A stretch of DNA of 64,000 bases from Antedon mediterranea (lineage: Eukaryota > Animalia > Echinodermata): NCBI RefSeq assembly GCF_964355755.1, contig NC_092677.1, positions 24,601,175-24,665,174 of the forward strand, read 5' to 3'. The number at the start of each line of letters is the position of its first letter. Within the stretch, counting starts at the first letter, position 1. Under the pieces are notes generated by a model. That model saw only the letters and a list, made by a program, of their open reading frames with translations. It did no database searches and was not told where the DNA came from. Below, piece by piece: positions 13,158 through 62,458 of this stretch. Made by a program: the position numbers and the translations under genes.

Positions 13158-16100
13158 ATGGCAAACACAGGTACGTTAGATCATAGAGATAGTTCACTAT
13201 AATATCTCTATGGTTAGATCTATTAATTAATCCATGATAAGACGTGTTGTCCTACTCTGATGTAATTGTACTTTGACCAATCAATCGAACAGGCTTGCAT
13301 TGCGCCTACGTCGTTGCGTTTTGTTGGGACAAGCTTAAAGCGTGGTTCCCACTAGCGACGCAACGCAAGGACGTAACGCAACGCAAGTGAATTCGTAAGC
13401 GATCACAAGCGATGGCTTATTCGCTTGTGATTACTTCGCTTGTCATTGGTTAAAACGCTTGCGTTGTGTTTACGTCCTTGCGTTACGTTCTAGTGGAACC
13501 ACGCTTAAGAAGACGGCGTAATTACGTCAAGGAGGGCACAGCATCTGGTCAAATTAATTAGCTCCTTGAAGCAAACCTACATCGCAATTATCGTCAACAT
13601 TAATGCATGACGAGGGTTCACATTCCCCCGACGCTAAAAGCAAAGCAAAACAATATGAAGAACATCAAACTACACTGTGGTATTCAAATGCGAAAATGTG
13701 CTTATATAATCTGGCTCCTCCGATGGCACCACTCCTGCTAAAACCTAATGGTGATGATAATGTTAATATTAGAGTAGAAACAGATAATGCGTCGATTGAG
13801 TAGTATTCCGTTAAAACACTTAATTTTACATTTTTATTTTACAACTTATACTTTCCAGCATTATCAAAAGAGGAATGTAGCCTATTGAAAAGTTCTGTGG
13901 CAAACTGGTTTGACCAACGTAATTTAATCAGTATGATCAAAGTTTTGTACGAAGAGTTGGTGACTAGTAAACAAGACTTACATAAATCTACTACAACGTT
14001 GGAATTGATCAACTTGGTAAATACTTATAAGGGATTTAGTCAAAATGATCCAAGTCTTTTACTTGCGACAATAAATGTTACTGGGCAACACGGCATATGG
14101 AACAAAATAGAAAAATTAAAATTACCTGAGCTACGTCAAACAAGAACAGTATCAATGTTCAGTGAATTCAGACAGAAGGTAATGAGGCTCGGATTAAAAA
14201 TGAAGGCTTGTGACGTAAAAAGGATAAGTCATTTGTATGAAGAAACAAAGTTTAGAAAGTATGAGGATAGCTGGAGTTTGATTATTGATCTTGAACATAA
14301 CGCCCACTTATCTAATAAAAACATGACGAGGTTCATTAGAACGTTAAGCGAGAATAGTCTCGGTCATTTAATATATACTATAGATGGCGGTATGTATTAC
14401 ATTTTATCCTGATATTGTTTATTTAAATACTATAACATTTAATTTACTAACCAGTATACCTATTTTCAAACAGTATTACATAATTAGATTCAAATTTAAC
14501 ATTTTGCTTGATTATTGATCTTAAACTTATCTTATGAAAACATGATAGAATTCATTGACATGTTAAGAATAAATACGCACTTTTTAATATGCGGAATGTA
14601 TTCAATTTTATCCTGATAATGGTTTATATATACTTTATACTATATAATTTACTTTACTAACCAGTATATCTAATTTCAATCAGTAGTATACGATAGAGTC
14701 AAATTCAATCCACCATTATTCACATATCCACAAAATACTGTTCAATTATTCGGAAGTAAACGAGAGATAATTTGAGCGTATTATCTAGTTTTAGTAATGA
14801 CTCTAGGTCAGGTCAATCGATGAGTCATCGGTCGTCGCCTGGACCATGGATGAAATAAGTATAATTTTGTTCATGCCTGGCCCTAGTAACCATCAAACCT
14901 GTGTCACGGTGGGGAGCGAGGACACATGTCCAATCTCCGCATGCGCATATTTCAACAATTAATTATCGTCGGTCGTGGCAAATCCAAAGCCCCCTAATGT
15001 TTCTTTACTTTGCTATATGATACAGGTGAACAACAAGTTGATATTGTTGAAAACAGAGACTTTGAATTACCAGGAACCGCAATAAAAAAAAAAGGTATGT
15101 AAATCAGTTTAGAAAAATCTGATTGATTTATTTTAATCTGGTCAAACAATTGTTGATATTATTCGATTGCATTGTGGATTTAAAAGCGGCACGAGGAATG
15201 GAGCTCTAAATAGATTAAATTAATCGAATATCTAAACAATTGACCATTAGTAGTAGTAAATACATTTGTCTACTACTGTATTTCCAATGCAATATTTAAG
15301 ATACAAGTGATTTACCTGCAAATTATTGACTTGTATGTGATCATGAATTGTAATACTGTACTTTCATATTATATATATAATATAGGCCTATATATAAACA
15401 AATTAGGCATAGAACATTAATTCCAAACCGCCCGGTAATATACTGAAATTTAATTAATTAATTTGAAACGATAAAGATGAGACTCGAACTCGGACCGCCT
15501 GCTTGATATGCAGATGTCCTAACCGTTAGACCACGGTATTGTTCGAACTCGATTGGATAGCGACTCTTTAACATTCTCGGCGTGGTACGGCCGGCGGAAC
15601 AGCAGCACTAGTCCTCAGTTGTACGCACGCGCACCAGAGATCAAATTGATACGCCCTCATCTTACAGTATTTTTATTTATTTTATATATACATATGTTAG
15701 TAATATATAAATTGTTTAAAATATTATATGAATCATGAGATGTGCTATTAACTGTAGAATGGCAAACAAATAACAAACAAAAAAATCTTGGTGATCTATA
15801 AATGTATAAATTGAAAAATAAAACAAAACTAGATAATTTGATGATTATCTCATTTTTTTTATAAGATCTTGTATTTTTGTATTCATGACTTTTTATATAT
15901 TTTTAATTAATTGTTTGAGAGCTTGTTAACGAAACGAAATTCCTTTTGGACCAATACATTTCTGTATTCTGTGTATTCTGTATTCTGTATTTGGCCTAAG
16001 TTTATAATGAAGAAAAGATATGCAATCATGAATTAGTATAAGGCATATAATATGATGTATGTTATATTTGTACATACATGTTTTATATATTCCCATACTT

Positions 16101-19100
16101 CAAAGAGTTTGGTTATGCTTTGTAACGTGTTACAAACCAAATACTGTAATTATGTAATTATGATGAATTCGATTAGATAATGTAGGCCTATATATATAAA
16201 AATCATAATGAATGAAGCAATTTTAATGATGATGAAATAAAAGTGGGAAACCCACAAAAGACAAAAAAAAAATACATTTGTCTGTTTAAACCAAAATAAA
16301 ACATGAAATTAAATTTAGTTGTTATTATCATGTATTATTATTCTTATTTTAACCATCAACATCAACTTCGTTTATCGAAGATAATCGGTTATTTTCTGTA
16401 TCGAATATTACTTTCTTAAAATTTACTTGAGTTGAATTAATATTCTTCTGACAACAAGAAAACTACTCACAGATACAATTAAGAAACAAACCCATGCATT
16501 ATAAACCAAAAGTCTAATTTGAGCCACGGCAGTGGCACTTTATTGGCCGCGAGAACTGTGACAGCCCCATGATTTGAACCCAGGACCTGGGATTAACAAG
16601 CAAGCTAATCAGACACTAAAGAATCAACAGATCAGAAACCTATATAGTTGGCTCTGTATTTCTTTTTTATACGTATGTTTTTGTGTCTTGTATTTTATAA
16701 TCATTTCCTCCTATAACAGTCAGTCTCATCTTTTATTAAATCAATTATACAGTAGGCCTACATCAAATGCAGTACAGTACACGGTTTTTGATGTTGTTAA
16801 GACATCAATATTAATATTGTGTTTCTTTATAGCATTGGTTGTTGCTGTTGTCATCGCTGTCATCGCTGTTGTCGTCATCACTTTCATCACTACTAGGCCT
16901 ATAGGAGGTGATGATTTATCTTTTTTTATGGTTAGGTTGAGGGTTAGGTTATGGTCTATCAATACTAGGTGATACACGTGAAACACATGTGATGCTATAT
17001 TCCAGAATTCAAATGACACTGGAGAAATTTAGATACAGTATCAAGAATCAGTTGCACGTAACGAGTAAAATCCATCTGTCATGATTAGGTTAGTCATAAT
17101 GGCATATGACCCAGGCATCACATGTGATACATATATGACATTAATTACAGAATTGTATAAAGTGATATTCATGAACAAATTATATACATAATGTATTAAG
17201 TACTGACATTTGGTAGGGAGAACGGTATGAGGGAAATAGTGAACCTCCAGGAAACCACTGTCTGGGGGTCAATGGGTTTTGATTAAATGTAATGTTTATT
17301 TTGTCGTAGGCCTATAATCATTCGTTTATTTAAATGATTTTCTAATTTGTTTGAGCAGTAATTATTTGTATTTTATTTGTCTTTTAACTTAAATGTAACT
17401 GTTTATTTTGACATTTTATAACAACATTATTATTTTTAAATATTACTTGTGTTTTGCCTACTATACTAAGTACTGTATTTTTTAATTTTTAATTTTATTT
17501 ATCTGTTAAATGTTAATTGAATTATAGGTCGACCAAATGCGCCAACAGTCACACTGTTGGAACAAAACCTCACTTCCATTACACTACGAATAGAAGACCC
17601 TGAATACACCGGTGATCTTGACCTAATTTTCTACAATATCAGCTTTAAATATGAAAGTAGGGGAAAGGATGTCGTTGATTTTAATATGTTTGATTACAGT
17701 AAGTCTTCATCAATTAAGTAAAATAAAACAACTATTGGTTGACATTGATAACCAAGGGCTGCACAGAAAATGTTGTTTATTTCTCCTTTTTTTATTATTC
17801 AATCAGAGGATAAAAATGACAAAGATTTTCAAATTTACACAATCAAAGAACTGTTATCAGAGAAACCATACAAAATCAGAGTGGCTGGCAAGAATAAATA
17901 TATGTTAGGATACCAAAGCGAAGAATTATACGCTAGAACACTAACAGAAGGTAAGTATCGTTATTTCATGAAGGATACATAACTTAAGATTTAAGTACAG
18001 CAATCCATTAGACTTAGGTACCATCAAAATGTCCACAAAAGTTGGTTAAACTGAGTTAAATATGGGTTGGTAATGTGGAAAAAAGACTTTCTGAATACCA
18101 AAAAGTTATCTATTGTGATCATTACATAGTTTGAAAAATATATATACACATATGTATTACCAACTGTCTGAAATGCGACATAGGCTGTACAGTAAGATCA
18201 AGAAAATGGTTCCTTTCCTGCCCTAAACTCTGTAAATTAAGAAATGGTCTAATCCGCCATGTATGAACACATAATGTAATACAGTAATAATAATATTGTG
18301 TAGACTAATAAACATTTATAACTGTTTAGTAATTCATTGTTAGATTCCAAACATTATTATAAAACATATGGACGGATTAAAATAAAATAATAAATTGTTA
18401 CTGTGAGCGTAGGTAGGGAGGATAAGGGAGAAAATCAAACTGTGTACGTCAATACTACTTAGTTAGGGAAAATCAGCACCAAACCTAGAAAAAATTATTT
18501 ACAAAGCGACTTTTATGGGAAAACCTTTATATGAATCTAAAATACCACCAAAAAAAAGTTCTAAGGATTTGGCCCATGGGAGACTTTTTTTGGCGTCATT
18601 TTCAAAATGGCCGCTTACAACTTGACATGCTTGTATCTTAGTAACCATTAATCATGGAGACTTGGTTTTGGTCTTAAATTGTTGAGAAGATACATATTCC
18701 TATTCTTCATAATGAAACATTTTGTCCAAAAGTGACCAGAAATGATATTTCTGACGTTTTGACCTTTGACCTCAGCTTATTATATCTCAATAACTACTGG
18801 TCGCATAATCTTCATATTGGTCTCAAATTGTTAAGAACATGTATGTTCCTATTTGGTATAATGGAGCATTATGTACAATTGTGACAAGAAGTATGGTTTT
18901 ATTAACTTTTAACCTTATATGTGAAAAGAGCACCAAACTTGAGAAAAAAATCACATTTTAAATGTTTTTGAGGGTGGGAGAGGGGATTATTCATCATGTA
19001 ATAACACCGAAACTTGGATATTGCTCCCAGTCGTTTACTTACTAAAGATTCCTTATTATTGGTAATAGTTTAAAATCCACATGTAATTATAGACGTACAA

Positions 19101-25100: not shown

Positions 25101-28100
25101 ATTTCTTTATTGTGTGTATCGGTTTTCTTAAACTTTTTACAATTTCAACAATACCATCATGATAGGGCGTGAATGTCTTGGCTGTCGGTTTAAATTGTTT
25201 ACGATTTTCATGAGGAAGAGTAATTAAAAATGGGAAATACATTTGCATCACATTTAGGTATATTGAGCATTCATTAAACATATACATTAAACTAAATACA
25301 CTTCAATTTCAATATTATGCTGATGAAATTCGGATAAGGCCCTCCACGGTATAGTAGCCAGAAGTGCAGAACCTACCAGATCAGCACACCGGGTCCCGGA
25401 GACGATCCCTACGTTTTTCCATTTTTTTGTTTTACAATAATACGACAATTATTCTTTACCAATCACTATTAATTACGAGATTCTGACCTCATAATAAGAT
25501 AGTTTACAGATTGAGATATTGAGATCGAAGGCTTTGGACAAATCAAAGAAAATACAGATTGTATTTTTTTGCAATAAGCATATAGATATACAGCAAGGTA
25601 GTATGTCAACTGTAAAATGATACTAGGACTAATGATGTAAGGAAAATAATGGTTAACAATTATTTTTCTTTTCAGATGAAATTATCCGAAACTTTTTAAC
25701 AGCAGAACAGAAAAGGAAATTTAAAGATCCAAACAGGAAACCGCCGACGTGGGACACGTATTTTAGACATACATACAACATTTCACAGATGTTTACTGAT
25801 CTAATATTGAAACCAGAAATTTTGAAGAAGTATAAATACCTGGATTTAAAAATCGAAAGTCCTACATCATTAAAAGAACTATTATACTTTATCAGGTCCG
25901 TGGAATCATGTAAAGTATGCATGACAGGAGAAGGAGGGGTTGGTAAGACGACTTTACTTCAGTATATATCTTATAACTGGGCAATTGATTCAGATTCTAC
26001 GTTTGCCGGTAAAATATTATTTCTTATAAATGTACGAGATATCGAGGCAGGTAAAACAATTACAGATATGATTGTAGCGCAGGTTAGTATGAGTATTTTT
26101 TTTAAACATACTAATCTCCCGACAAATGAACTACTAATAGAAAGGTTTATACAGAAGTATGACAGGGAGTTAATTGTGTTGTTAGATGGATTAGATGAGT
26201 TGGAATATGGTGTCGTAGGGCCAAAACTGATGTTAGAAGGTAATGAACTGAGGGAAAGCATAGTTATTATGACATCACGACCGGGTTTTACGAAAGACTT
26301 ACTTATTCATTGCGATTTAGATGTAAAAGTAGAAGGGTTTTCTAAAAATAACATTGAGGAATATATTCAAAAATATTTTATACTTGTTGAAAACCCTGCG
26401 CTTGGTGATTCATTGATTGAAGAATTCAAACTTAATTCGGAATATACAAGTTCTTGGGGTGGCGATCACAAAAAAATATTTGAATTCCTGCAATCCCCTT
26501 TTTTATTACTTAAAATGTGCACCATATGGGACCATGAACAAATAATTCCTAAACATTTTGAACACTTTTTTATAGAAATTTTTCGATGCATTTTAAATCA
26601 GTACCTTAATAGGAACGGTACTTCTAAAGCAATTCCAAAATATCTTGACTTTCCCGACGAGTTTAACAATTCACTTCGAATATTAGGCAATATTAGTTAC
26701 ATAAAACTACAGACAAATTTACTTCATTTTTATAAAACGGATTTGATAAACCTAGCAGGAAATAACAGTTTAGTTGACTTATCTCTTAAATTAGGTTTTG
26801 TTTACAAAGACCCTCCATCTGAAAAAGATTCCTTTTTGGAGACTTATCGATGTCCACATAAGTTACTGGCAGAGGCCCTAGCAGGATTTTACTTGTCTTA
26901 TAAAAGTCAATTTGAAATTTTAAATTTTGACGAAAGTGAAGAAATAAGAACTAACACGTATCTACATATGACTAGAGTGTTTACAGTTAGTTTTCTAGGT
27001 CCCAACGCGGACAAACTTATGAAATACTGGTTGTTGAATAATGCTTCTCATTATTACTCATTTGCAAAATATTTCCAATATGTAAATAAAGAACACGAAA
27101 AAAGGGTATTAGAATCACTTGATGAGCACATAAACCAATCGAAAGAACTAACGATACAAGTCGAACGCTTAACGCGTTCCTTTACAGCGTTTTATAATTA
27201 CAATTTACACTTTATACAGCATTTGAAATTGTTACATGAAGAAGTAACAAAATCAGGTAGATATGTAATAGAAAATAAAATTATCGAATTGATAGAAAAA
27301 TCGACAAAAGAATCATCTGAAGATATTTGCAGGCTTGTAGCACACGTATTAATAATAATACAACAAAATAAGAATATAGGGATCGATGAATACGTTGAAT
27401 ACAGTGACTTATATTTACTGTATTTATTTAATAAATGGGGTGATACAGCTATTGAGATTCTCTCAAACGAGTGGAGAAGATGTCATTTAAATGAAGAAAT
27501 ACAGGAAATTAGTTTTTCTTACCCCATGTCCACGTTATTTCTTATTACTTATTTGAATGGCACACACTTATGTCATTTTTTTCAATCTTTTTCCAACCTT
27601 CGATTTCTCTACATGGACGACGGTGGTTATATATATAATGGTAAGCTTATTAAAGAAATTATAACCGAATGTAACAATAGTACAGTGTTTTCAGAATTAA
27701 CGGAGCTTGATCTCAGTCACAATGATTTAACAGATATAAATGGAACATTATTAAGTCACATAATTCATATTTCTAAAGATTTGAAAAGAATTAATTTAGA
27801 ATCTTGTAATTTAAATGGTACCCATATAAATAGTATGTTGAAAAAACATGAAGTAAAGTATCTGAAGTTAAAAAATATTACCATTCAATTAGAAGACAAT
27901 AACCTTTCAGATATTGATACAGATTCACTTGTAAAGCTGATAAACTTAGAAACATCCGGGTGGTTAAAATGGAAAAATTATAAACTATCAGCCAAGCACT
28001 TACAAGCTCTTCTGATTTCACATCAGAAGTACAGATTTATAAGAGTCATTCGTGTTGATTTGGATAATGTAGACCTATCGTCAATTAATGGAAGTATACT

Positions 28101-29133
28101 AGCTAACATTTTTATTATATTTCCAAATATAAATAATCTTTTTATGAATAGTTGTAATTTAGTAGGTAGCACTATGTCTGATATGCTAAATATACAAATA
28201 TCTAGTAGTACGCATGTAAATAGTATGTTAAAGGAAACTGTTGCAAAGTATCTAGAATCTAAAAAAATGACCATTGAATTACATAGAAATGACCTTTCAG
28301 ATATGGATGCAGATTCACTCGGACAGCTGATAGACGTTCACTTTTATAGTGGACTATATTTTTTTCGTTTAAAATGGAAAGGTGATTATAATCTATCAGC
28401 CAAGAACTTACAAGCTCTTCTAATTTCACCTCAGAAGTACAGATTTCTAAGAGTCGGTTGTGTTGATTTGAATAATGTAGACCTATCATCAATTAATGGA
28501 AGTACACTAGCTAACATTTTTATTGTATTTCCAAAAATAACACGTCTTTTTATGAATAATTGTAATTTAGTAGGTAGCATTATTTCTGATATGCTAAATA
28601 CACAAATATCTAGTAGTACGCATGTAAAAAGTATGTTGAAGGAAACTGTTGCAAAGTATCTAGAATCTAAAGAAATTACAATTACATTAAGTGGAAATAA
28701 CCTTTCAGATATTGATACAGATTTACTCGGGAAGGTGATAAACTTTGAAGCATCCGTGTCGTTAACATGGACAGATTATAATCTATCAGCCAAAAACTTA
28801 AAAGCCCTTCTAATTTCAGCTCAGAAGTACACAGTTTTAAGAGTCGTTACTGTTAATTTGAATTATGTAGACCTATCCTCAATTAATGGAAGTACACTAG
28901 CTAACATTTTTATTGTATTTCCAAATATAACAGATCTTTTTATGAGTAATTGTAATTTAGTAGGTAGCACTATTTCTGATATGCTAAATACACAAATATC
29001 TAGTAGTACGCATGTAAATAGTATGTTGAAGGAAACTGTTGCAAAGTATCTACAGTCTAACAAAAAAAAAATTACCATTGGATTAGGTGGAAATAACCTT
29101 TCAGATATTGGTGATAGACTTAAGATTTCATAG
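13158..29133 (+). CDS. Gene B: membrane-anchored NLR, tandem death-fold (DED-like)-linker-TM-FN3-NACHT-LRR, ~1486 aa; exons 13158-13170, 13859-14389, 15026-15094, 16833-16907, 17528-17698, 17807-17950, 25676-29133
   Basis: All introns are phase 1 with AG/GT ends, and the summed CDS of 4461 nt is in frame. Walker A GEGGVGKTT, Walker B LLDGLDE, sensor-1 TSRP, winged-helix HKLLAEALAG, and LRR motifs (LTELDLSHNDL, LKRINLESCNL). Confidence 0.8.
13339..13505. mobile_element. Palindromic PIF/Harbinger-type MITE
   Basis: TIR agcgtggttcc...ggaaccacgct with long internal inverted symmetry, flanked by TAA on both sides. Confidence 0.65.
13859..14389 (+). CDS. Gene B exon: tandem death-fold (DED-like) N-terminal domain
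   Basis: Helical ~177 aa with two repeats carrying DED-like patterns (TTLELINLV; SWSLIIDLEHNAHLSNKNMTRFIRTL); acceptor ctttccag, donor G|gtatgt. The fold assignment is by pattern only. Confidence 0.6.
15476..15540 (-). mobile_element. tRNA-derived SINE head / tRNA pseudogene
   Basis: The minus strand reads tggtctaacggttagg (A box) ... gagttcgagtctc (B box); no convincing acceptor stem. Confidence 0.5.
16833..16907 (+). CDS. Gene B transmembrane exon (ALVVAVVIAVIAVVVITFITTRPIG)
   Basis: Acceptor tgtgtttctttatag is identical to the gene A TM cassettes; 75 nt, phase 1-1; preceded in frame by KKK from exon 15026-15094. The donor gtgatg is weak. Confidence 0.7.
17528..17950 (+). CDS. Gene B fibronectin type III domain (exons 17528-17698 and 17807-17950)
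   Basis: RPNAPTVTLLEQNLTSITLRIEDPEYTG..LIFYNISFKY ... YTIKELLSEKPYKIRVAGKNKYMLGYQSEELYART matches the FN3 consensus (P.AP, SITL, Y.I, L...Y..RV.A.N..G..S); both donors are gtaagt. Confidence 0.85.
18460..21410 (-). mobile_element. Academ (AcademX-type) DNA transposon, internally deleted and frameshifted, in a gene B intron
   Basis: Termini TAGTTAGGG...CCCTAACTA, 3-bp TSD ACT on both sides, and subterminal inverted homology. Minus-strand ORF pieces carry Academ transposase motifs (WSDIAIEQTLMRHSKSQGGL; LFTRL...EL.P..SL) and an XPG/PIN-like nuclease (VIDGGWLIH, IFDTY..SIKDHEHKRR, FLSNLKNKQELI). Confidence 0.85.
22760..23720. repeat. Tandem array of a ~365-bp unit (~2.7 copies), probably internal to a non-autonomous DNA element starting near 22578
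   Basis: ggtagggggtaaca...cagatttgcattttc...tagaggtca recurs at ~22762, ~23134 and ~23496. Confidence 0.75.
25676..29133 (+). CDS. Gene B large NACHT-HD-LRR exon
   Basis: Acceptor tttcttttcag|ATGAA (phase 1) is in frame with the 1114-aa ORF; NACHT motifs are intact; LRR super-repeats of 130-136 aa. Confidence 0.92.
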
Positions 29134-29846
29134 TAGGCATTTGTTGCTTTATTAAATTTGGAAAGGTGGTTATAATCTACAAGTTCTTCTAATTTCACCT
29201 CAAAAGTACAGATTTCTAAGAGTCGAGGGTGTTGATTTGAATAATCCAGACCTATCATCAATTAATGGAAGTATACTAGCTAACATTTGTTTTGTATTTC
29301 CAAAGTTAACCCATCTTTCTAAGATTGGATGCAATTTAGTAGGTACCATTATTACTGATATGCTAAATACATGTAGAGAAATGAATATTGAACTGAACGA
29401 GAATTCAATATCACTAATGAACAATAACATTTCTATTGATGGCGAATCGTTACTTAAATTATTGTGTTATAAGAAACGATGAATACAGATGCTCAGAAAC
29501 ATTAGAGTGGAGGAGATATAGTTTAACAGGTGGCAATCTTAAAGATATATTACAACGACCTAATAACAATGAATTAAAGTGGAAATATGTTGATTTAACG
29601 GATATAGATCTATCTTTAATTAGTGGTGTTACATTAGCGAAAATATTTAAATTATTTCCAAACTTAACTTATATAAGACTGAAAATATCAGACGATATTC
29701 AGCGAGAAATGTTGAAGGAATGCGTTAAACTCAGTGTTTCATTAGAAAATATCACAATTGATGTTTCATTTTCCTCTGGACAGTTCTGCCTTCAACGAGA
29801 GATAATTGAAAAAAAAGGACGTTTAATTTATACAAATTTGTTATAG
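29134..29846 (+). pseudogene. Frameshifted continuation of the gene B LRR region
   Basis: ORFs 29237-29482 and 29436-29846 continue the DLSSINGS..FP.L..L...C.L repeat in different frames. Confidence 0.7.
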
Positions 29847-40316: not shown

Positions 40317-40475
40317 TCGGCACAGAATATCTCTGCTCATGTACAGATAACTTTCTACTTAAGTACACAATGGGATAATCATTACCCTCACCATCTATTT
40401 GGCTCAGCACTGCACCTATGCCATAATTTGAGGCATCGGTTTGCAATATAAACATCTTATCAAAATTTGGGGCTT

Positions 40476-44643: not shown

Positions 44644-45167
44644 GCTAATAACAATTTTACTAATGAAATATGTAAACTTATGTATACAAAATATGTTATA
44701 AAAGTATGTGTATTACCTTGATTCCATTCAGATATGTAAAAATATTAAATCCACATAAATTTTTAAATGCAATACAATCTAAGACATTAATTTACTTCAA
44801 AGTCACAAACAACGTTCCAAGTTCGCTCCGTACAAAAATTTACTTTCGAAATAAATAATAGTTTACAAAGTCAGCTTTGCAAATCTTCTCCAAATTTACT
44901 GGGCTTCCTTCTGTTACTTCAGTCTTCTTCTTTCAGACCTCGGTGAATATATACAGTATCTCCGATGAATATCCAGCAGTCTTGAGCTCAACAGTACTTC
45001 TTCTTCGTTGTAATATCCAAACAACGCACGGTATAAAAACTGTCAGGAATCCAGATCTTCGTAACCATTTAACTTTTTGGTTACTGATTTAACAGGCCCG
45101 TAGAGTAGGCACTGTCACTTCTTCTTCTTCTTCTTCTTGATACTTAAATCATGTAAACAAAAATTTT

Positions 45168-45573: not shown

Positions 45574-45589
45574 TCAATAATATGACAAC

Positions 45590-49231: not shown

Positions 49232-52200
49232 ATGGAGGATAGATTTACAGACTTTCTTCAAGAATTCAGTGATGCCTATCCCGGGGAAGATGTACAGGAG
49301 TTAAGATTACTTCTACATCATCACCTACCGATTGGTATATTGGCACGTGACAACTTAGGAATGAATTTATTTACTGAACTCAAGCATAAAGGTCTTATCG
49401 CATACCATGATGTTAACATTATGTCAGAAATGGCAGACGTGACAGAAAACGCTGACGCAAAAGCCAGTGTAATGAGATACAAACAAGAAGTTGATGGTTT
49501 CGGTCCGTATCGGGAAAGTTTGAAGGAAAGGCGTAAACAGCTTTATAAAGCTATGTGTAGTATAACAGAAACTGCGAGAGGTGATTTTCAAAAATTGATT
49601 GCGTTCTACGACCTAAGTTCATACAGATTTACAAATAAATGGGATTTAGTATTTGATCTGGAGAAAGAACTCAAATTAAATACACTGGATGAGGATAGTT
49701 TTACGAAATTTGCCAATCAGTTGAATCCAAGTGCAAAAAGGATATTACTGGGTACGTTTTAAATAATTATCAACATTATTCCCACGGTTAACGTTGCACA
49801 AGTCTATTTTCCATTTACAAGTCCCTTTCCAATTATTTTTTAGTGGTCTTTAGTTGCTTTTGTCTCTAATTAGAATCCCTCTAACTAAAAACCGGCACTA
49901 GAATTGGTCTCTAAATTACCTATTCGAGGGAAATTAAATGTCAGAATGATTATCTTCGTCCCTGAAGAAGGCTAAAGGTAAATATAATCGAGTTGGTTTG
50001 TCTGCCCTTCTGTCCAGTTGTGTGTATTTGTCTATTCAATGGATGATACCCACCCTAAAAATGGATTAAGTTTATTTTTAAAGTAGTCTTTAATATTGGA
50101 GCGAACATTTGAAGGAAACTGTTAATTAGTTTAAAACCGTGGTCTTTTGTCTCTAATTAGATAGAGTCTTTAATTGAAGAGAGCAGCTAATGATAAAAAT
50201 AAGAGATCATCCCATCCAGGCAGTGTTAAAGCTGTCTTTAATTGGAAGAAGTCATGTACTTTTACATGTTTGGTATTCCCCGTCGACATGTTTTTCATAT
50301 TTTGGATAAATTGATAATAGAAAAACATCGGCGTTCATTTCGCTCTGAGCACATTTTGACAGAAACTATAGGATGTCGGGAGTTCTAAATTTTTACCCCA
50401 TAACGAGAATACCTGAGAATACTTTTTCTAGGATGGGACTCGAACCCACGACCTTCAGGTCACTAGCCTGGCGTTCATACCGCTCAGACAACCGAGCTTG
50501 TGCTGATGCATAGGGTAAGATTCGAGCCCAAGTAAGTAGTGGGTACTAACACCAACAGGGCTATATTAACGAACTGTGGAGTAGCTTTGCGTCAGGGGGA
50601 GTTGAGTAATTGGTCAGACATTTTGCCCTACTCTGACGTAATTTAATTTAATACATTTGCGAATTTACATGACGTAGTTTGGTCGTCAGCGGTCGTCGTT
50701 AATCGAAAGCTCCCTAATACATTCATTCATTCAGGCTTATCGCCTGACTTTATTTACTTTAGGCCTCTGGCCCCTAGTAATTAACAAAATAATAATTACA
50801 TTGAAAAATAAAGCAATTTATGGTCACAAGATAAATGAATTAATTAATTTCGTTCTCTAAGCAAAACATATATCTTAACTTATAAGCATGATACTGTATT
50901 TGTTTACTTTGCTATAAATACAGGTGGACAAGTTGATATAGATAAAAACGAAAATATTGGATTACCAAGAACAGTAATACAGGTAAGTAACCAGTTTATA
51001 CAAATTTAAAGGCGGCATGAGGAATGGAGCTCCAGTTTACATATCGAATACTTTTAAAGAATAATACCGGAATATAAAAAGGGCCAAAGTCCATCATTTG
51101 ACCAAATTGAGTTAAACATAGAAAAAAACTTAGGCATAGGGCTACCTTGTGTATGAATTATGGACCGAAGTCCACTCATTAAGTACTATTAACACGTGGT
51201 AGAAAACCGGTATGTATAAAAGAAAGGCCCAGCTCCAGGGACTTGGACCTTTCTTACACACAATATAGATAGCATCCTCTGTTGACGAATATGTATCTAT
51301 ATATAAATTTACGTAAGGGCAAAATTCGGTAAATCGCGCCTTACTTCTAGAATGTTTACTCGATGGTATATAAAGTTAGTTCGTACTTTCGGTACTGATT
51401 TTAACCACCTGATGTAACCCTGTTTACTAATTAAATTGAGTTAGACAATCAGTTTTTGACAATTAAAACGAATTTAGGTTTAACGATTTGCCCCAAATAG
51501 GGGTGTTTTCCGATCGCGGTATAAACTGTCTAATGGATGTCTATCTTGAAAAATACCGCACACAATAATACGAGGATGCTTCGCATTTTTCTATCTCCTC
51601 CTACGATAATTGTTTTTAATAGATGAAAACCGGTTGAACAGCTCGAGTACAGCATCATAATGTTGAAGACAGGCCGATTTTCTTTTAAAAAAATACTACT
51701 TTTGATAGATTTAATATACGTTTATACAAATGTATTGATTTCTGATGAATGGAACATTCCAATATAACTATTTGGTTTAAAACAAGTACCAGCTGTAGGT
51801 AAATTTATTGGCCCTTGGGGAATTAACCTGGAACCTATTGGACAGTACTGTAAATACGTATTAACCATTTTTGGACACATATTACTGTGAGTGTGAGTAG
51901 GCCCTACTGTTAGATATATAAACGCAAAATATACAAATAAACTTTTATTACTGACAGTTGCTTCTCAACGTTTGTATTAATTAATAATTACAAAAAATGT
52001 AAACGTCGTAGTAGTGTATCGTTACATGTATTATGCTATTTCAATCGACTAATGACAGTGACAGTTTTAACGAAGTATTAAATCGCCAATGTGTTACTGT
52101 TTCAAGTAGTATATTATTTATAGGCCTATAAAACATGAACACAATATTTCGTTACTGAGTAGATAAAGAATATATTTAAAAATTGTTCTTCTTTGTACCC

Positions 52201-55200
52201 ATCCTCTTCTCCATCCCTCAATCCTAATGTTACATACAAAACACAAATTGGATTTGTTTAAATGCAAAAAATTGGACTCATTTTGTGACAAGTTTCTCTT
52301 TCGGAAGTAATTCCCATGGTGCTAATTTTAGTTGACTACATAAATCATTGTGTCTATTTATTCGTTTCTGTAAACGACAATAATTATAGTCCTGCGGTAC
52401 ATTTTTGACGCTGAAATCACTGTGTATTCTAAAACCATCTAGTGTTATAAATTATGCTTAATTCTGACTTCGGGACAAATCTCTCCGCCTTGGATACATA
52501 CATCATCTATCTCAAATGTACCGCGAAACGTAGATTTGATAACATTAGCTCTCACTATTACGATATTGTTATCTTAGGAAGATGTTATAAATGGTTTTAA
52601 AACAAAATTTGTGCTTTCATTGGTAGATTTTTTTGGAAGTAATTTCAGGGTTCACGGTGAGTTCACGGGTTCACCTTGCCACTTTCAACTAAGTTGGCCG
52701 TTGTTGGTGATAGCCATTTTAGATTTTGTTTATTTTCGGACCGCGCGTGTGAAAGGGTCAGTAGATCAAAATTTTACTGCAACTTAATAAAGATAAAATT
52801 AAATATATTCATAAATCATCCAAGTATATTATGGGGAATAGTATATCAAATTACATCGGGAGAACTGATGATAAGAACTTTTGTTTTAAATCGAGTGAAA
52901 CCCCGATAGCCGAGTTGTTGATGAGTAAGCTCAGGAATAACTTCTGCCCATGTTGCAAAACGTCTAAAACGTCTTCTTTCTTGGGCCGAAACGGCCCACT
53001 GTGTCGCGGAAGTTAGTTTCAAAATATGTTTAAACTAAATAATGTATTGATCCAATTAAGATTAAACGCCCAATACCTCCCCAATAAAACATCACTTAGA
53101 ATAATAAACGTCCATCGACATTTATACACACAATATTGTATTATAATTTATAACACTATTATATTGTAGTAGAATTCATCGAACTGTTATCTACAATTTA
53201 TCAAGCATTTGTTATTCTTTTTTACCACTTTTCATATCTATTAGAGGATTTTATTTTATTATAAATGTTACCATATTACTAAAATGCCTTTACATTTTGA
53301 AATTTTATTAGAGACTAAACAAAACAAAAAAGAAATTACGAACGATTTAAAAAAAATCTGGAAAACACATGAAACATTTCAATGGTCCGAAACAAAGGTG
53401 AATAAAGCCAAGGACAAATGGAATGATGAACACATTTTCAAATTTCTTGATGATATTAATGAAAATGTTGAAAAAAGGGATATTGATGAAGCCCTAATTA
53501 ACTTTATAGAACTTTAAAATATGTTTACATAAATACAAAAAAACTAACACAAGTACACAAAAAATGCACAAAATTGCCCAAGAATACATGGTTTGATCAT
53601 CAATGCATAAAAAAGAAAATTATTATTCGTAGCATTCTTAATAAATATAGAAAATACAAAACTAACTAACCTATTAAAGGAGTATCTGTTAAAGAAAAGG
53701 AGTTATAAAAAATTAATAAAATAAAAAAAAATAAACATAACAATTCATCACAACAAAAATTAATCAGGTTAATAAAGGAACATAACAGTACAAAATTTTG
53801 GAAAAACCTTAAAACCAAACGACAACAACACGTGACCAACATTACACTTAAAAAATGACATGATTACTTCAAAACAATGTTCCAAAATCAAACAAATAAT
53901 ATACAAGAAATCAATATAGAAGACGATAACGATAACAATTGCGAACATAACGATTGTTACAATGAAGAAATCAGCCGGAAAGAGGTAATTTATGCAATTA
54001 AAGCACAGAAAAGGGGTAAAGCTCCAGGTATTGATGGATTCCCGATTGAATTTTTTACTTGTATGCCAAATGCTGCTATTAGCGCAATTACGAAAATTTT
54101 TAATAGTATTTTTACCTCTGGAAATTTTCCCCAACAATGGGCAACAAGCATTATTATTCCTATATTTAAAAAGGGAAAAAGAGATCAACCAGCAAATTAT
54201 AGAGGCGTATCCTTAATATCCACTTTAGGCAAGGTGTTTTTATACATTATAAGCAATAGATTAAGCAAATGGACAGAAGAAAATGAAACATTACATCAAG
54301 AGCAGGGAGGGTTTAGAAAAGATTGTCGTACTATTGATAACATATTTATTTTAGACACAATTGTTAACAAATATCTCTCAAAAAAACGAGGAACTGTGTA
54401 CATGGCGTTTATAGATTTAAAACGCGCTTTCGATTCTGTTAGACACGATTTCCTTATAATTAAACTAAGAAAATCTGGTATAAAAGGTAAAATAATCAAA
54501 GTTATAAAAACAATGTATAGTAAATTAAAAGGGCATGTAAAGGTTGGCAACAAAATTGGAGAATCCTTTAAATGTGAAGTAGGAATACAACAAGGGTCAC
54601 CTTTATCTTCATTATTATTAAATATTTTTATTAATGATATAACTGAGTTATTACATACTGCTGAAAATCGAAACAAAATAAAATTGATAACATAAATATT
54701 AATCACCTACTGTATGCAGATGATCTAGTTTTAATCAGTGATACAGTGTACTCATTACAAGATCTTTAAAATAAATTAGCATATTATTGTAATAGGTGGG
54801 GATTGGTAGTTAACATTGACAAAAGTAAAATAATAGGTAGGTGTAGTATTTTAAAAAAATGGAAAACTTAAGAACTACGAAAAGTGGAATTATCTTGGTA
54901 AAGAAATTGAAATAGTAAAATCTCTTAAATATCTTGGAGTCACTTTCGATGGTTCAGGAAATTGTGAAAAGGCCAGAGAACAAAATAATACACAGGCTAA
55001 TAAAGCACTTTTCTCACTCAAAAATATAGTATATCAGAAATATGGACATCTACCAGTGAATATTTGGAACTACTTATTTAATGTTAAAATAAACCAATTA
55101 TACTGTATGGTAGTGAAATATGGGGAAAACTAAACAACAACAAAATTGATGATATTCAAAATAATTTCTGTAGATATGTTTTAGGGGTCGGGAAATCAGC

Positions 55201-58200
55201 CACAAATGTTTCAATTAGAGGAGAATGTGGACGATTCTCTTTATCAATCGAAAGTGTACTCAATGTTATCCGTTATTGGGTAAGACTAGTAAATATGAAC
55301 GAGGACAAATATGCGAAGAAATGTTATAAATCTCAACTTCATAAAGCGCAAAATAATAGTAATTGTTGGGTAAGCGATATAAAACATATGTTATGCTCTA
55401 TTGGTCATGGAAACATATGGTTTTCACAAAATAATGTCCTTGATAAATTTTATATAATTAATAAAACAAAAGAAAGGCTAACCGATATGGAACGCCAATC
55501 CTTTCTTGAAAGCATAAATATTTCTTCAAAATTAAGATATTATAAAATGTTCAAAAACAATTTCGGAGTAGATGGATACTTACTACAGACCCTTGATACT
55601 AGATATAAGCGAGCTTTAAGTCAACTAAGACTGGGCACACTTCAACTAGAGGTAGAAAAGGGAAGATGGAAAAGAATAGAGCGCAGCAATAGGTTATGTA
55701 AAATATGTAATATAAATGAAGTTTTGTTACAGTTTGCCCTCGTTACAAGGAAATTTATATCTTCTTTATTTTTTGAAAATCCAAATACTTTTAAATTCTG
55801 CCGATTAATGTCATCACATGATCCAATAATTATTGATAATATATCTAAATATATGTATCATGCTTATAAGTTAAGATATATGTTTTGCTTAGAGAACGAA
55901 ATTAATTAATTCATTTATCTTGTGACCATAAATTGCTTTATTTTTCAATGTAATTATTATTTTGTTAATTACTATGGGCCAGAGGCCTAAAGTAAATAAA
56001 GTCAGGCGATAAGCCTGAATGAATGAATCAATGAAAACTAAAAATAGCAGACAACCGTGACAATGTTAGACTTAATATTAATGTCAAATTATGTAAATTC
56101 AGCTTTCTGATAATTGTCTGTATTTGGTTATAGAAATTTGTTGCTGCAACTGTCATCGCTGTCATCGCTCTAATCGTAGCTTGGTTTGTCTTGGGTAAGT
56201 TAGGTGTATTTATCTTTTGTATGGTTAGTTTGAGGGTTGGTTGGTCGATGATACTAGTAAAACACATGTGATGCGATGCTATATATTCCGCAATATTTGT
56301 ATGACACTCTGGAGAAATCTAGATACAGTCCCAAGAATCAGGTGCAAAATCCCTGTTTCATGTTTAGGTTAGTCATATGGCACATGATACAGACATCGCA
56401 TGTGATACATATGTGACATTAAAGTACTGAAATTTGGTTGGGAGAAAAGTATAGGGGAAACGGTGAAACAAAACCTCCAGCAAAGCTACTGTCTGGAAGT
56501 AAATGGGTTTTTGATTAAATTTGATTGATTTATTTTTTTATAAGAAGCATCGTTTTTTTTGGCGTATTATACAGTATAAGTATTTATTTATTTAGTATTT
56601 TATTTATCATTTTAAACATATTGTCTGGAAGTCAACAGGTTTTTGGTTAAATTTAACTGTTTACTTTGTCTTTTTTATAAGCAAAATAATTAATTTGTAT
56701 TATTAATTATTTCTGTTTTGCTTATATAATTATCAATATAAGTATTTTATTTATGTTATTAATATTTTGAATGTTAATTGAATTATAGCTCGACCAAATG
56801 CGCCTACAGTCACACTGTTGGAACAAAACCTCACTTCCATCACACTACGAATAGAAGACCCTGAATACACCGGTGGTCTTGATCTAATTGCCTACAAAAT
56901 CAGCTTTAGATATAAAAATGATGGTCAGTATGTTGGTGAATCTGAAACGTTTGATTACAGTAAGTCTACATAAAAGTAAAATAAATAAAAAACTAATTCA
57001 TTGACATTGATACAGAACATGTGCTTTATTTATCTTTTTTATATTATTCCACCAGAGGATAGAAATGAAAAAGATTTTCAAATTTACACAATCAAAGAAC
57101 TGTCACCAGCGAAACTATACAAAATCAGAGTGGCTGGCAAGAATAAATATATGTTAGGAGACCAAAGCGAAGAATTAGACGCTAGAACACTAACAGAAGG
57201 TAAGTATCGTTATTTGATGAAACATACATAACTTAAGATTTCAGTACAACAATCCATTAGACTTAAGTACCATCAAAATGTCAACATACTGTGTTGCAAA
57301 AGTTAAACAACCTGGGATGGTAATGTGAAAAAGGAAAAAGACTTTTTGAATACCAAAACGTTATCTGTTAATTGTGAATATTACATAGTTTTAAATAAAT
57401 GTGTATTGCCACCTGGCTGAAATGTGACGGAGTCTGTACTCTTTAAAAAAAACACACCTATTTTTAATCAATTATAGCTTCTCTGGATGGCTGGTTACCC
57501 CAAGTTTTTAAAATGTATTATGGAAGCTGATGAGTTGTAGATATCAATTCATGTAAAATGTGTACCTACCGGATGGTCTGATGTCACCATATGGCCACTT
57601 GAATTTAAAAAATAACTTCTTTTTTCGCTTTAGTACTAGTTAATCCCATTTAATAGAGCGCATTGCACTTATAATGCTTATCCGATTGTTCTTTCTCAAT
57701 CAATTCTCTTTCACATTCGTTGTGAAAAAAAAAAATTGAATTTGTATTACGTCATCATATTAAAAAATTAGAATAACGTGACTTACTTAATTTCGTCTAT
57801 ACAGTATATTATAAGGCAAGTGCTGCCTGGGTGGACAGGAATAAAAGTATGTAAATGGTGACGATACCTGACACGTTTCTCGGACAGGCGACGTAATTTG
57901 GTAAAGTTATCCAAAGTACCCTCCATAATTACAGCAAAATCAGATCAAAACAGTCCCTAAAGGAAGATGTTCCAACAATTTCACATATCTTTTTGTTGGA
58001 ATATACAAGCCTGTAGATATCCTCATCTAGTTGGTCAGCCTCATTCTTTGCCCTGTCAAATCCTCTCTTGACCATTTGTCTCAATATTTTATGGCAACAC
58101 GATTCCATCTTCTTTATTTCATTCTCATTTGGAAACCATGATTGTGTACCATAATAAGAGCCTGGATCTTACGCAGGCCTCTAAAACTTTCTTTCTTGTC

Positions 58201-61200
58201 TTCATATAGACATCATGATCTTTTAAAACTTCTTTTAATTCATGGAACTTTCCTACAGCACTTGATGTTCTATGGTCAGTGAAGCAGCCATCCTCTCTAT
58301 TTGTGATTGTATGCCCTAAATAAACAAAGTCTCTTACATTTTCAATATCCACTCCATTTATGTTTACTAAGGAACTTTTCTCTGCTAGATGTTGTTCACC
58401 AAACACCTGAGTCTTCGTTTTCTTCAGGGAAACATTCAACCCGTATCTTCTGCAAGTATCACAAATAATGGTCAAGATTTGCTGTGATTCTTTAACATTT
58501 TTTTAGAATAAAACAAGATCATCTGCATATAAGATCCACTTGATTATTTCCACTCCATTCTGCTTAGCTTCTTTTCTCTGTTTTTACATTAATTTGGAAT
58601 ATTATAACGAAATCCAATACCCCATCCATCAGGAAATTCCTTATCGATTTCGAATGCAGAAATTTTGAGGACAAAATCAAAATACAAATTAAAAAGGCAA
58701 GGGGATTCCTGACCACCTTGTCTGCATCTGACTCTCACTTCAAAGAAAGATTTCATCCCGTTGATGCATGCGGTTGTTCCATCATACATAGCTTTTAGAA
58801 GTGAAACAATATGTGTAGCTTTTGTCCTGAGAAGTAGAGCTTTAAAGAGTAGGTGTCTTGGTATGTGATCATATGCAGCAGTGAGATCAATATAGGTAGC
58901 AATAATTGTACCTTGATGTTTCTCGATAACAGCTCTGGTTATAAAAATAGCATCAGCAGTTGATCTATTACTGCGGAATCCAAACTGACTCTCACTTAAA
59001 TGACTTTCATACGCCCCTTTCAATCTCCATGTGATAATCTTGGATAGAATTCTTCTGAGATTTGATCCTATCGATATCCCTCAATAATTCTTGGCTTCAC
59101 TGACATTCCCCTTCTTAAAAATACGTGATCTTGCTCATCAGCCAAGAGTTAGTGACCTTCCGTGTTGTCCAGATTACAATTATAAGCATATGAAGGAATG
59201 CAAACAGGCGTTAACTTATATTGTACTTCAGTACTTCGGACTTGATGTTATCTGTTCCTCCACTTTTTTCAATTTTGAATGACTTTATAACCTCTTCTAG
59301 TTCTTTGCTAGTTAGTGGATCCTCATTAACTATACAGTCTTCATCATTGAACAACTGTGGGAAACTTCCTGGGTCTTCTAGCTCACTAGGGACACTGAAG
59401 GATTCAGGTGGGCCTGCAAAGTGTGACTCAAAATGTACTTTCAGCTTTTCCTTCTGAATTCTACTATCACTGGATTTCTTGAAGACTTTGTAATAATGTT
59501 AATGTAATATAATATTTTTAGATTCAATAACTGTCTATATTAATACCTATGTGACGTTTTTAATAAATGATAAATCTTAAAGAATCTTAAAAAATTATTT
59601 TTAAACATATAACTTGTATAATAAATACAAATGTGAATATTTTGTAGCATCTGGGATATAATTTTCATAGATATATTAAAAAGTATTGAACCCAGGATGG
59701 ACTCCTGTCAACATTGTTATTTTTATTGACCAAAGAACATGCCTATTGAACATTTATTAAACATATATACAATAAAAAACAATACGTATAGTACGGTATG
59801 TGACAAAACAATCAATTGAAAAAATTTGTTTAATTTACTAATATTTTTTACGTATTTTCGTATTTTTCAATGTGTTGTTTTATAATAATACAAAAATCTT
59901 CACCAACCATATATTAATTACGAAATCATATTTATACGATTGTAACATCATAATTAGTGGTTTACATAGTAATATATTGCGATTGCAGCCTTTGGATAAA
60001 TCAAAGAAATTTCAGATTGTATTTATTTATATGCAATAAGCATTTTTATAATAATATGTTGATATATAGCAAGGTTGTAGTTACAGTTATGTCAACTGCA
60101 ACATGATAGTATGCCTAATAATAATGTGAAGAAATTATTGGATTACAATCATTTTTCTTTTCAGATGAACTTATCCGAAACTTTCTAATAGCAGAACAGA
60201 AAAAGAAATTTCAAGATCCAAACATAAAACCGCCGACATGGAACGCTCAATATAGCAATAAATACAATATTGCACTGATGTTTACTGATCTAATATTGAA
60301 ACCAAAAATATTGAAGAAGTATAAATACCCGGATCTAGAAATCGAAAGTCCTACATCATTAAAAGAACTATTAGACATTATCAAGTCGGCGGAGTCATGT
60401 AAAGTATGCATGACAGGAGAAGGAGGAGTTGGTAAGACGACTTTACTTCAGTATATATCTTACAACTGGGCAACTGGTTCTGATTCTACATTTGACGGTA
60501 AAATATTATTTCTTATAAATGTAAGAGATATCAAGGCAGGTAAAACAATTAGAGATATGATTGTAGGGCAAGTTAATCTGGTAATTTTTAGTAAATATCT
60601 TCGTCTTCAGAAAGATAAAACAATTATAGAAACGTTTATAGATACACATGAAAAAGAATTAGTTGTGCTGTTGGATGGATTGGACGAGTTAGAATATGGT
60701 GTTGGAGGACCAAATATAATATTAAAGGGTGACGAACTGAGGGAAAGCACAGTAATTATGACATCACGACCGGGTTTTCCTAGAGACTTAGGCCTATTTA
60801 ATCATTGTGATTTAGAAGTAATAGTAGAAGGGTTTTTAGAAAATAACATTATGAAATATATTGACAAATATTTTAGACTTGTTAAAAAACCTGCGCTTGG
60901 TGATTCATTGATTGAAGAATTCAAATCTTATTCGCAATATACAATTGGTCGGGGTGGTGATCACAAAGAGATATTTGAACTCGTTCAATCACCTTTTTTA
61001 TTACTTAAAATGTGTACCATATGGGAATATGAAAAAAAAGTACCCAACAATTTTCAACACTTTTTAAAAGAAATTTTCCGTTCAGTTTTAAATCAGTACA
61101 TTAACAGAAGTGGAAACTATACTGTGAAACCGATACAAACACTAGATCACATTCCATCTGACTATAAAAATTCCATTTTATTATTAGGAAATATCAGTTA

Positions 61201-62458
61201 TATAAGTCTACAGAAAAACTTTCTTCATTTTACTAAATTGGAATTAGGAGAGCTAGTAAAAAATGATACTTTAGTTGACTTATCACTCAGATTAGGTTTT
61301 GTTTACAAAGATAATCCTGCTTTCCCGGATAGCTTTTATGAAACTTACCGATATTCACATAAGTTACTGGCAGAGGCACTAGCGGGGTTTTACTTGTCTC
61401 ACAAAATTCACTTTGAGACTTTAGATTTCAAAGAAAGTGAAATCATAAGAACTAACATTTATTTACATAAGACTATAGAATGTACAATTAGTTTTCTAGG
61501 TTCTAATGCAGACAAACTCATGAAACACTGGCTGGTGATCAATGTTTCTAATCTTTATTTATTTTCACAATATTTTAAATTTGAAAAACAGGAAGACGAA
61601 GAAAAAGTATTGGGATCCCTAGATGAATACCTCAGCAAATCCGAATTAAAACATATAAAAATACAAATTGATAGTTTAAAACGTTCCTTCAAAACGTTTT
61701 ATAATAGCAGTTCACACTTCATAAAACTTTTGAGAAAGTTGTATGAAGAACTTGAAGAATCTCCATTTAAAGTAATAGACAAAGTCAATATGTTCATAAT
61801 TAATTCAACTGAAAAGTCACCTAAAGCTGTTTGCAGACGTGTAGCGCACGTCTCACTAATAATACAACTATACAAAAATAGAAATTTTTATCGGTGGCTG
61901 TCAGTGGGAGAATTTGGCGATTATCATTTACTGGAACTAGTTCATTTATGGGATAACGAAGCTATTGAGGTTCTCTCAAATGTATGGAACATGTTTAATT
62001 TAAGTGCACAGATACGCGCGCTTGATTTCAATCCCACTAGTTTGTCAAACGGCTTGCTTTTTAGAACAAGAGGTTCTACTCCTGAACAATTAACAAATAA
62101 AAGCTTGTGCAATTTTTTTCAAATATTTCCCAATCTTCAAAGACTAATGATAAGTTCCATTGTTATTAATGATATGATTAACGAATGCAAAAGCAGTAAA
62201 ATATTTGTTTATTTCGAGAAATGTAATTTTTTTAGAAAAGTTGAATATGGAGCAATAATTGACATAATGAAAACTTCTACCCATTTACGAATTATTGATC
62301 CTAATAAATGCAAATACATATATTATAACATGGATCGCAGGGTGATGTATTTTTCACATCCTATATTTGAAAATTTGAAAGATTATGTAACTATACACAA
62401 CGAAACATGGTATGCCGATATAGAAATAGCCGAGTACATCGATGCTGGAATCATCTGA
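49232..62458 (+). CDS. Gene D: intact membrane-anchored NLR, tandem death-fold-linker-TM-FN3-NACHT-short LRR, ~1082 aa; exons 49232-49751, 50924-50982, 56134-56194, 56789-56959, 57056-57199, 60165-62458
   Basis: All donors are gtaagt or gtacgt, the phases chain correctly (1,0,1,1,1), and the summed CDS of 3249 nt has no internal stop. TM KFVAATVIAVIALIVAWFVL; FN3; GEGGVGKTT; LLDGLDE. Confidence 0.85.
50432..50498 (-). mobile_element. tRNA-derived SINE head / tRNA-Thr(AGT)-like pseudogene
   Basis: Minus strand: A-box-like tgtctgagcggt, stem-loop cagg-ctAGTga-cctg, T arm gtggg-ttcgagt-cccat. The acceptor stem does not pair. Confidence 0.5.
50720..50894 (-). mobile_element. ~175-bp 3' end copy of the RTEX-like LINE
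   Basis: Near-exact reverse complement of 55856-56030, including the (GAAT)n tail. Confidence 0.85.
53284..56030 (+). mobile_element. RTEX-like non-LTR retrotransposon, 5' truncated and frameshifted
   Basis: RT motifs GKAPGIDG, PIFKKG..P.NYRGVSL, QGGFR, FIDLKRAFDSV, QQGSPLS and LYADD; C-terminal RLGTLQLEVEKGRW..R.CKIC; (GAAT)n tail. Confidence 0.8.
56134..56194 (+). CDS. Gene D transmembrane exon
   Basis: ttggttatag acceptor and G|gtaagt donor; phase 0-1, which exactly matches the phase-0 end of linker exon 50924-50982. Confidence 0.8.
56789..57199 (+). CDS. Gene D FN3 domain (exons 56789-56959, 57056-57199)
   Basis: Paralogue of 17528-17950 with the same exon lengths (171 and 144 nt); both exons are open. 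Confidence 0.85.
57860..59490 (-). mobile_element. RTE-like LINE reverse transcriptase fragment
   Basis: SQFGFRSNRSTADAIF, IDLTAAYD, RQGGQESPCLFNLY, LYADD, GLNVSLKKTK and FVYLG motifs, spread over several frames. Confidence 0.8.
60165..62458 (+). CDS. Gene D NACHT-HD exon with minimal LRR tail
   Basis: Acceptor tttcttttcag|ATGAA is in frame with the 726-aa ORF; NACHT motifs are intact; only about 2 LRR-like units (IRALDF, FPNLQRLMI). Confidence 0.92.

Follow-up and report, generated by a model that had tools for sequence, protein, structure and literature searches.

Gene organization of the locus

The stretch of DNA analysed here, referred to below as the window, comprises 64,000 nucleotides (nt) of the crinoid Antedon mediterranea (contig NC_092677.1, positions 24,601,175-24,665,174 of the forward strand). 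It contains three NACHT genes of the NLR type, termed B, C and D, all on the + strand, together with the 3' portion of gene A, which is related to them; the predicted products of B, C and D are candidates for a membrane-spanning type of NLR, in which one hydrophobic helix separates the effector domains from NACHT. The exon models of B, C and D, which we rebuilt from GT-AG boundaries, share one plan: a tandem-DED exon, a short linker exon, a hydrophobic mini-exon predicted to encode a transmembrane (TM) helix, and a single large NACHT exon, with two FN3 exons between the last two in B and D.

Gene B comprises a start exon (13158-13170), a tandem-DED exon (13859-14389; DED E-value of 1e-4, below the Pfam cut-off), to which RefSeq XP_071959548.1 (P0077) maps at 100%, a linker exon (15026-15094) with three lysines at its end, the TM exon (16833-16907), which encodes 21 uncharged residues and is present also in the RefSeq model, and two FN3 exons (17528-17698 and 17807-17950). 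The RefSeq protein, 350 amino acids long and lacking NACHT, ends in a short terminal exon (18413-18462). The NACHT-HD1-WHD-HD2-LRR exon of B (25676-29846) is open to 29133 and continues as frameshifted LRR pieces to approximately 29846; no database protein covers it, and the closest protein match is at 58%. Gene C consists of a tandem-DED exon (35336-35864) and a linker exon (36008-36052), both with weak donors, the TM exon (36326-36385), located 215 nt upstream of the NACHT exon, and the NACHT exon with LRR remnants (36601-40317), open to a stop at 38508-38510 and followed by frameshifted LRRs that reach a retrotransposon. In gene D the tandem-DED exon (49232-49751) and a linker exon ending in phase 0 (50924-50982) precede the TM exon (56134-56194), which is identical to that of RefSeq XP_071959549.1, two exons of an NCAM-derived FN3 domain (56789-56959 and 57056-57199), and an exon with an intact frame that encodes NACHT-HD1-WHD-HD2 and about three LRR-like units (60165-62458).

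The original prediction, made from the DNA letters alone, held that three paralogs each carry an in-frame hydrophobic mini-exon, and we recovered all three exactly where it had placed them, bounded by AG and GT and spliced in frame (B: 75 nt, phase 1-1; C: 60 nt, phase 1-1; D: 61 nt, phase 0-1). In each model the mini-exon forms the top hydropathy peak, with KD19 of 3.41, 2.38 and 2.90 in B, C and D, respectively, and runner-up peaks of 1.43, 1.51 and 1.05. Scanning the 64 kb for hydrophobic mini-exons of this type revealed six acceptors on the + strand (those of B, C and D, two in gene A and one within a retrotransposon) and one on the - strand; the hydrophobic mini-exons are real and well above the chance level. 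All seven TM-exon copies of genes A-D can be aligned as one ancestral exon and have a common acceptor context, which at the sequence level identifies them as homologs with one ancestor. A count of three full members overstates the case, as only D is intact, and a fourth gene (A) carries four copies of the exon. The prediction of no signal peptide and no second TM segment before NACHT agrees with our scans: the TM-FN3, FN3-NACHT and TM-NACHT introns of the window genes yielded no further hydrophobic exon in a scan that picked up the true exons of B and C as positive controls, and hydropathy analysis detected neither a second hydrophobic segment before Walker A nor a signal-like N-terminus in the window models or in eight TM members from databases. 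An upstream signal-peptide exon was considered separately and ruled out by in-frame stops, which lie 5' of the start in B and, for C and D, within the spliced 5' leaders.

Gene D, whose spliced model is identical across 1082 residues to XP_071959549.1 of A. mediterranea, is the only intact full-length member among B, C and D. The other two look like decaying or truncated copies, and an assembly error may account for the stop in C or the frameshift in the tail of B. Of the three results that the original prediction named as refuting it, none was found. Skipping of the TM exon, one of these three, would keep the frame in B and C, where this exon is symmetrical; D cannot skip it without a frameshift and a stop at amino acid 215, given the phase 0 end of its linker and the 0-1 phase of the TM exon. 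In four read runs over gene B the introns are covered and, among the rows listed, no joint matches an intron, so that these runs behave as DNA. It could be argued that the joined models reflect artefacts of annotation or pseudogenes, with no DED-TM-NACHT protein being made, as C is broken and has weak donors, B is annotated without NACHT, and transposons lie in the introns. We regard this as very unlikely in view of the intact 1082-codon frame of D, the compensating phases of its exons, the existence of nine members in two families, and the signs of purifying selection.

Domain composition and evolution of the exons

The "death folds" of the original prediction can be specified as tandem DEDs by profile searches, structural modeling and Pfam. 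Pfam DED matches fall below the cut-off; an alignment-based model shows two helical bundles with pLDDT of ~90, and the best solved matches of the N-terminal family profile are cFLIP (E-value of 5e-6) and caspase-8 (3e-4), with FADD also matched. The FN3 domain and the helix have low confidence in the alignment-based model, folding from a single sequence gave a low pLDDT (31.6), and ESM Atlas yielded no usable match. NACHT was detected in the window genes by Pfam with E-values of 1e-15 to 1e-18; the model of the NACHT module (pLDDT 81.7) has NOD2 and NLRC4 as its best Foldseek matches, the Walker A, Walker B and sensor-1 motifs are intact in 9/9 TM members, and HD1, WHD and HD2 are present. For the three pairs of B, C and D, dN/dS over the NACHT exons amounts to 0.55 (0.46-0.68), 0.55 (0.44-0.69) and 0.50 (0.41-0.65); with all intervals excluding 1, these exons are, as judged from the codons, under purifying selection. 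The LRR part of the predicted architecture was overstated: Pfam finds no LRR match in the open frames of B, C and D, the repeats of B are LRR-like up to the frameshift, those of C lie behind the stop, and D has about three units. Longer arrays are present in the relatives P0007 and P0042.

Over 104 residues, the FN3 domain of B and D shares 60% identity with the first FN3 domain in the NCAM ectodomain of A. mediterranea, and human NCAM1 FN3 is its sole solved-structure match; by these similarities it is a copy of a domain from the NCAM ectodomain. The FN3 exons of B and D (17528-17950 and 56789-57199) differ by dS of only 0.07, with dN/dS of 1.64 (0.70-5.27), compared to dS of 0.45 for the NACHT exons, and this closeness suggests a recent copy or gene conversion. 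The tandem DED of B (13859-14389) belongs to a different subtype than those of C (35336-35864) and D (49232-49751), with 12% identity. Because the TM, FN3 and NACHT exons of B stay close to those of C and D, unlike its DED exon, the latter appears to have been swapped. The locus as a whole records the assembly of a receptor via exon shuffling.

Distribution of TM-NLRs in crinoids

Analysis of 68 related proteins with Walker A revealed 10 with a helix before NACHT, 37 that are complete and lack it, and 21 with an N-terminus too short to be classified, which were left out of the contrast. The first two groups split cleanly by KD19 (at least 2.38 in the 10 TM proteins, at most 1.51 in the 37 others). 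The TM members originate from two A. mediterranea contigs and from Anneissia japonica, i.e. from two different families, Antedonidae and Comatulidae. A NACHT tree of 32 rows was built from nine of the ten TM proteins, P0003 being omitted because it nearly duplicates P0042, and from 23 non-TM proteins, namely P0074 and 22 out of the 37 complete relatives. It places the nine TM rows on one side of a branch with SH-aLRT of 87, and a single origin of the TM-NLRs is likely on the basis of these alignments.

The 37 complete non-TM relatives, i.e. the cytosolic crinoid NLRs, are built from the same tandem DED, NACHT-HD1-WHD-HD2 and LRR modules, but have no helix and keep all of them in one compartment. 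Four non-TM crinoid NLRs (P0009, P0014, P0035 and P0050) have an OTU protease domain before NACHT. In the sea urchin Strongylocentrotus purpuratus, P0135 / P0184 (XP_030836011.1) has ~130 residues with no Pfam match, one hydrophobic helix and then NACHT, and is possibly an independent single-helix NLR of sea urchins.

Membrane orientation

NLRs are defined as cytosolic sensors, in which NACHT gathers the attached effector domains. In the crinoid TM proteins, as far as the sequence tells, effector and NACHT are split by one helix of 20-27 uncharged residues with no internal proline. Because this single helix lies between them, either the DEDs or NACHT must be on the far side of the membrane in either insertion, and the cytosolic-NLR rule is broken in both orientations. 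It is likely, given the predicted helix, that effector and NACHT do not share one cytosolic compartment. We infer that the topology is quite probably type II, with the DEDs inside and NACHT outside the cell or in a lumen.

Several lines of evidence point to this orientation. First, the proteins lack a signal peptide and begin with a folded unit of 175 residues, which favours the DEDs inside; rapid folding of N-terminal domains inhibits their translocation, according to PMC2174215, which cites Denzer 1995. Second, basic residues precede the helix in B, C and D, as noted previously; the count of lysine and arginine is higher before the helix than after it in 8/9 TM members, and the net C-N charge is negative in 8/9, B (+1) being the exception; the rules of orientation applied are those set out in PMC2174215. 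Third, modules typical of extracellular proteins are found between the helix and NACHT in 3/8 database TM proteins and in B, versus 0/37 non-TM relatives: in Antedon this is the NCAM FN3, and in Anneissia P0017 a pair of EGF domains with six cysteines each, which immediately precedes NACHT. By sequence comparison there have been two separate insertions of such modules on the NACHT side; no Ig match was found in the pre-NACHT regions. Fourth, cysteine is the most shifted of the 20 residues in the TM group, with 1.12% versus 2.13% in the NACHT core and 1.99% versus 3.70% in the tail of TM and non-TM proteins, respectively, while the DEDs remain at 1.08% versus 1.00% (compared by region with 34 of the 37 complete non-TM relatives); a loss of free cysteines would suit an oxidising compartment. 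Finally, in the same genome DED-DED-TM precedes mucin-like (Thr-rich)/MAM ectodomains in P0145 (XP_071963970.1) and P0157 (XP_071963567.1), which likewise favours the DEDs inside. The original interpretation is thus supported in part: the architecture with a single helix is borne out, and the putative type II topology has gained indirect support from the NCAM FN3, the EGF pair, the charges and the cysteine loss.

A number of observations weigh against this interpretation. The splice junctions rest on sequence models and the RefSeq models are themselves predictions; the one for B contains the TM and FN3 exons and stops before NACHT, that of P0017 lacks the DED, and gene C is broken, its LRRs being frameshifted behind the stop. 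The LRR of D is vestigial, which weakens the role of the LRR as a sensor. In a 44-row tree calculated with a mixture model, the TM groups of Antedon and Anneissia form an unresolved fork. The charge measure is noisy, since B has +1, the difference amounts to just -1 in four other members, and the two type I controls give 0. The cysteine loss is one evolutionary event, and the non-TM proteins P0070, P0030, P0024 and P0026 are low as well (6-7 cysteines). In gene A the normally cytosolic ZU5-UPA module lies behind the same hydrophobic exon, present in an odd number of copies, and shows no cysteine loss; from the exon count, the odd number of helices would place this module across the membrane from the DEDs. 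The expected glycosylation signal did not materialize: sequons are not enriched in TM versus non-TM proteins, with observed/expected ratios of 1.14 versus 0.89 in the core (p=0.054 for the density) and 1.45 versus 1.52 in the tail. Long, very hydrophobic helices can moreover favour the reverse orientation, as described in PMC2174215. Sequons of the LRR (e.g. N-G-S) were dropped as evidence for topology, as they are equally numerous in non-TM relatives.

These points raise the question of whether NACHT could be cytosolic after all, with the helix being monotopic or re-entrant, inserted as type III (DEDs outside), or paired with an undetected second hydrophobic exon, so that the protein would be an ordinary membrane-tethered NLR. 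DED, NACHT and ZU5 are all established as cytosolic and FN3 is found in cytosolic proteins too; the missing sequon signal and the basic residues on both sides of the helix in B also fit such an arrangement. It is nevertheless improbable in our view, considering the length and composition of the uncharged spans, the fact that no second exon was found in the introns of the window, the two EGFs that directly precede NACHT in P0017, and the resistance of folded N-terminal domains to translocation.

Possible mode of action

With some reserve, we favour as the best explanation overall a type II DED-TM-(FN3)-NACHT receptor that signals inward. The helix would serve as an internal signal-anchor: the DEDs would fold first and remain inside, while the remainder is translocated, resulting in a type II protein in the endoplasmic reticulum and possibly at the surface or in endosomes. 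The outer NACHT may still bind nucleotide and self-associate, as suggested by the retained ATPase motifs. Self-association of the outer module, driven by ligand or nucleotide, would cluster the helices and with them the cFLIP/caspase-8-like DEDs, which could recruit DED caspases or adaptors in the style of a death-receptor complex, without a death-domain adaptor. Such death-receptor-like signalling is offered only as a hypothesis, and a tentative one. No firmer is a broader scenario, in which an NLR was turned inside out before the split of Antedonidae and Comatulidae: its NACHT, gated by nucleotide, suited to oxidising conditions and equipped with spacers borrowed from NCAM or EGF proteins, would oligomerise outside or in a lumen and drive a cytosolic DED filament, and the DED-DED-TM cassette would define a broader group of inverted receptors, kinase-DED-DED-TM-MAM proteins among them.

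The main rival has the type II topology in common with this receptor and differs in mechanism. It assumes that the function resides in a tandem DED tethered to the membrane, i.e. a cFLIP-like decoy or scaffold, and that the outer part is an interchangeable passenger or adhesive ectodomain rather than a nucleotide switch. The variety of sequences that follow the cassette agrees with it (FN3 alone in RefSeq B, ZU5-UPA in gene A, MAM, a short tail, or NACHT), and so do the decay of B and C, the broken or reduced LRRs of B, C and D, and dN/dS of ~0.5, which signifies moderate constraint only. We nonetheless judge it unlikely, though a serious contender: ATPase motifs intact in 9/9 members, dN/dS intervals that exclude 1, and the retention of the TM-NACHT pairing in two families all speak for an outer NACHT that is more than a passenger.

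Comparison with known systems

Membrane-bound NLRs have been described in sea cucumbers in PMC8699970 and in the review PMC13673367. The original prediction assumed that membrane NLRs are known only with a cytosolic NACHT; this no longer stands as worded, as AjNLR-new of Apostichopus japonicus (PMC13133943, JBC 2026), an echinoderm membrane NLR-like protein, is described there as having an extracellular NACHT, the first such case among NLRs. Its architecture is different: it has Ig domains, reported as intracellular, between two TM segments and no death folds, whereas the crinoid genes encode one helix and tandem DEDs. The evidence for the topology of AjNLR-new is indirect and consists of TMHMM, colocalisation with DiI and binding by recombinant fragments, not of protease protection or glycosylation. 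AjNLRC4 (PMC8699970) and the Diadema Ig-TM-NACHT protein XP_071476618.1 (P0043) likewise come from echinoderms and carry a TM segment ahead of NACHT, but with Ig outside and NACHT inside, opposite to the orientation inferred for the crinoid genes; the N-terminus of P0043 is a signal-peptide-like segment. The putative membrane-bound NLRs of anthozoans and sponges resemble them in having N-terminal TM segments; anthozoan NLRs have 3-4 of these and sponge NLRs show weak signals for 1-2, with no helix separating a death fold from NACHT described in the available parts of PMC3879445 and PMC12909245. The parts of PMC2858798 and PMC8913654 that we could consult likewise contain no DED-TM-NACHT architecture. 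Neither crinoid TM-NLRs nor DED-TM-NACHT proteins are described in the open-access literature searched, and with respect to that literature the crinoid DED-TM-NACHT proteins of two families appear to be a new variant of membrane NLR, with a putatively inverted topology.

A further possibility is that the type II form is a precursor: NACHT would be released by shedding, to act as a soluble opsonin or agglutinin, while intramembrane cleavage would free the DEDs. Type II proteins are often substrates of sheddases and of SPP/SPPL proteases. The recombinant NACHT of AjNLR-new binds and agglutinates bacteria (PMC13133943), which would fit a soluble function. The near absence of a stalk between the helix and NACHT in C speaks against shedding, and we consider such a fate quite improbable for the crinoid proteins.

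By fold the crinoid proteins resemble NOD2, NLRC4 and NLRP3, which have no helix and in which effector and NACHT share a compartment. The proposed logic of the inward-signalling receptor is that of Fas/TNFR with FADD-caspase-8-cFLIP, where clustering outside gathers death folds inside, with homology restricted to the DED fold of the partners. Death receptors are type I proteins with a cysteine-rich ectodomain and a death domain; Pfam detected neither a TNFR-type cysteine-rich ectodomain nor a death domain in the crinoid proteins, and the likeness is one of working only. If the topology holds, a STAND ATPase located in a lumen or outside the cell would signal across the membrane, and a death receptor would have arisen here independently; in an animal that lacks adaptive immunity, it could serve to detect nucleotides or microbes outside the cell. 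With gene D as one intact annotated frame, the topology is directly testable in cultured cells.

Gene A, related cassettes and mobile elements

Gene A (375-8727, + strand) starts before the window and includes four TM-exon copies, of which three are hydrophobic and the fourth is degenerate, as well as ZU5-UPA and two hydrophobic segments at the C-terminus. Its RefSeq models XP_071957970.1 and XP_071957969.1 (P0187 and P0193) have N-terminal tandem DEDs that are 93% identical to those of B. Elsewhere in A. mediterranea we found models with the arrangements kinase-DED-DED-TM-(Thr-rich)-MAM, kinase-DED-DED-TM-short tail and DED-TM-MAM (P0145, P0124 (XP_071963914.1), P0157 and P0103). Judging from the order of their domains, the kinase-DED-DED-TM models may represent receptor-like kinases of inverted orientation that make use of a similar cassette.

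An isolated LRR remnant that resembles the repeats of B lies between genes A and B (9809-9936). Adjoining the LRR remnants of gene C are gag, reverse transcriptase and integrase frames, in pieces, of a long terminal repeat retrotransposon-like element (40476-44712, - strand), which we take to be of a Gypsy-like family. Broken pieces of LINE-like reverse transcriptases are located at 53859-55909 (+ strand), 58125-59080 (- strand) and 31150-31572 (- strand), two of them within introns of gene D.

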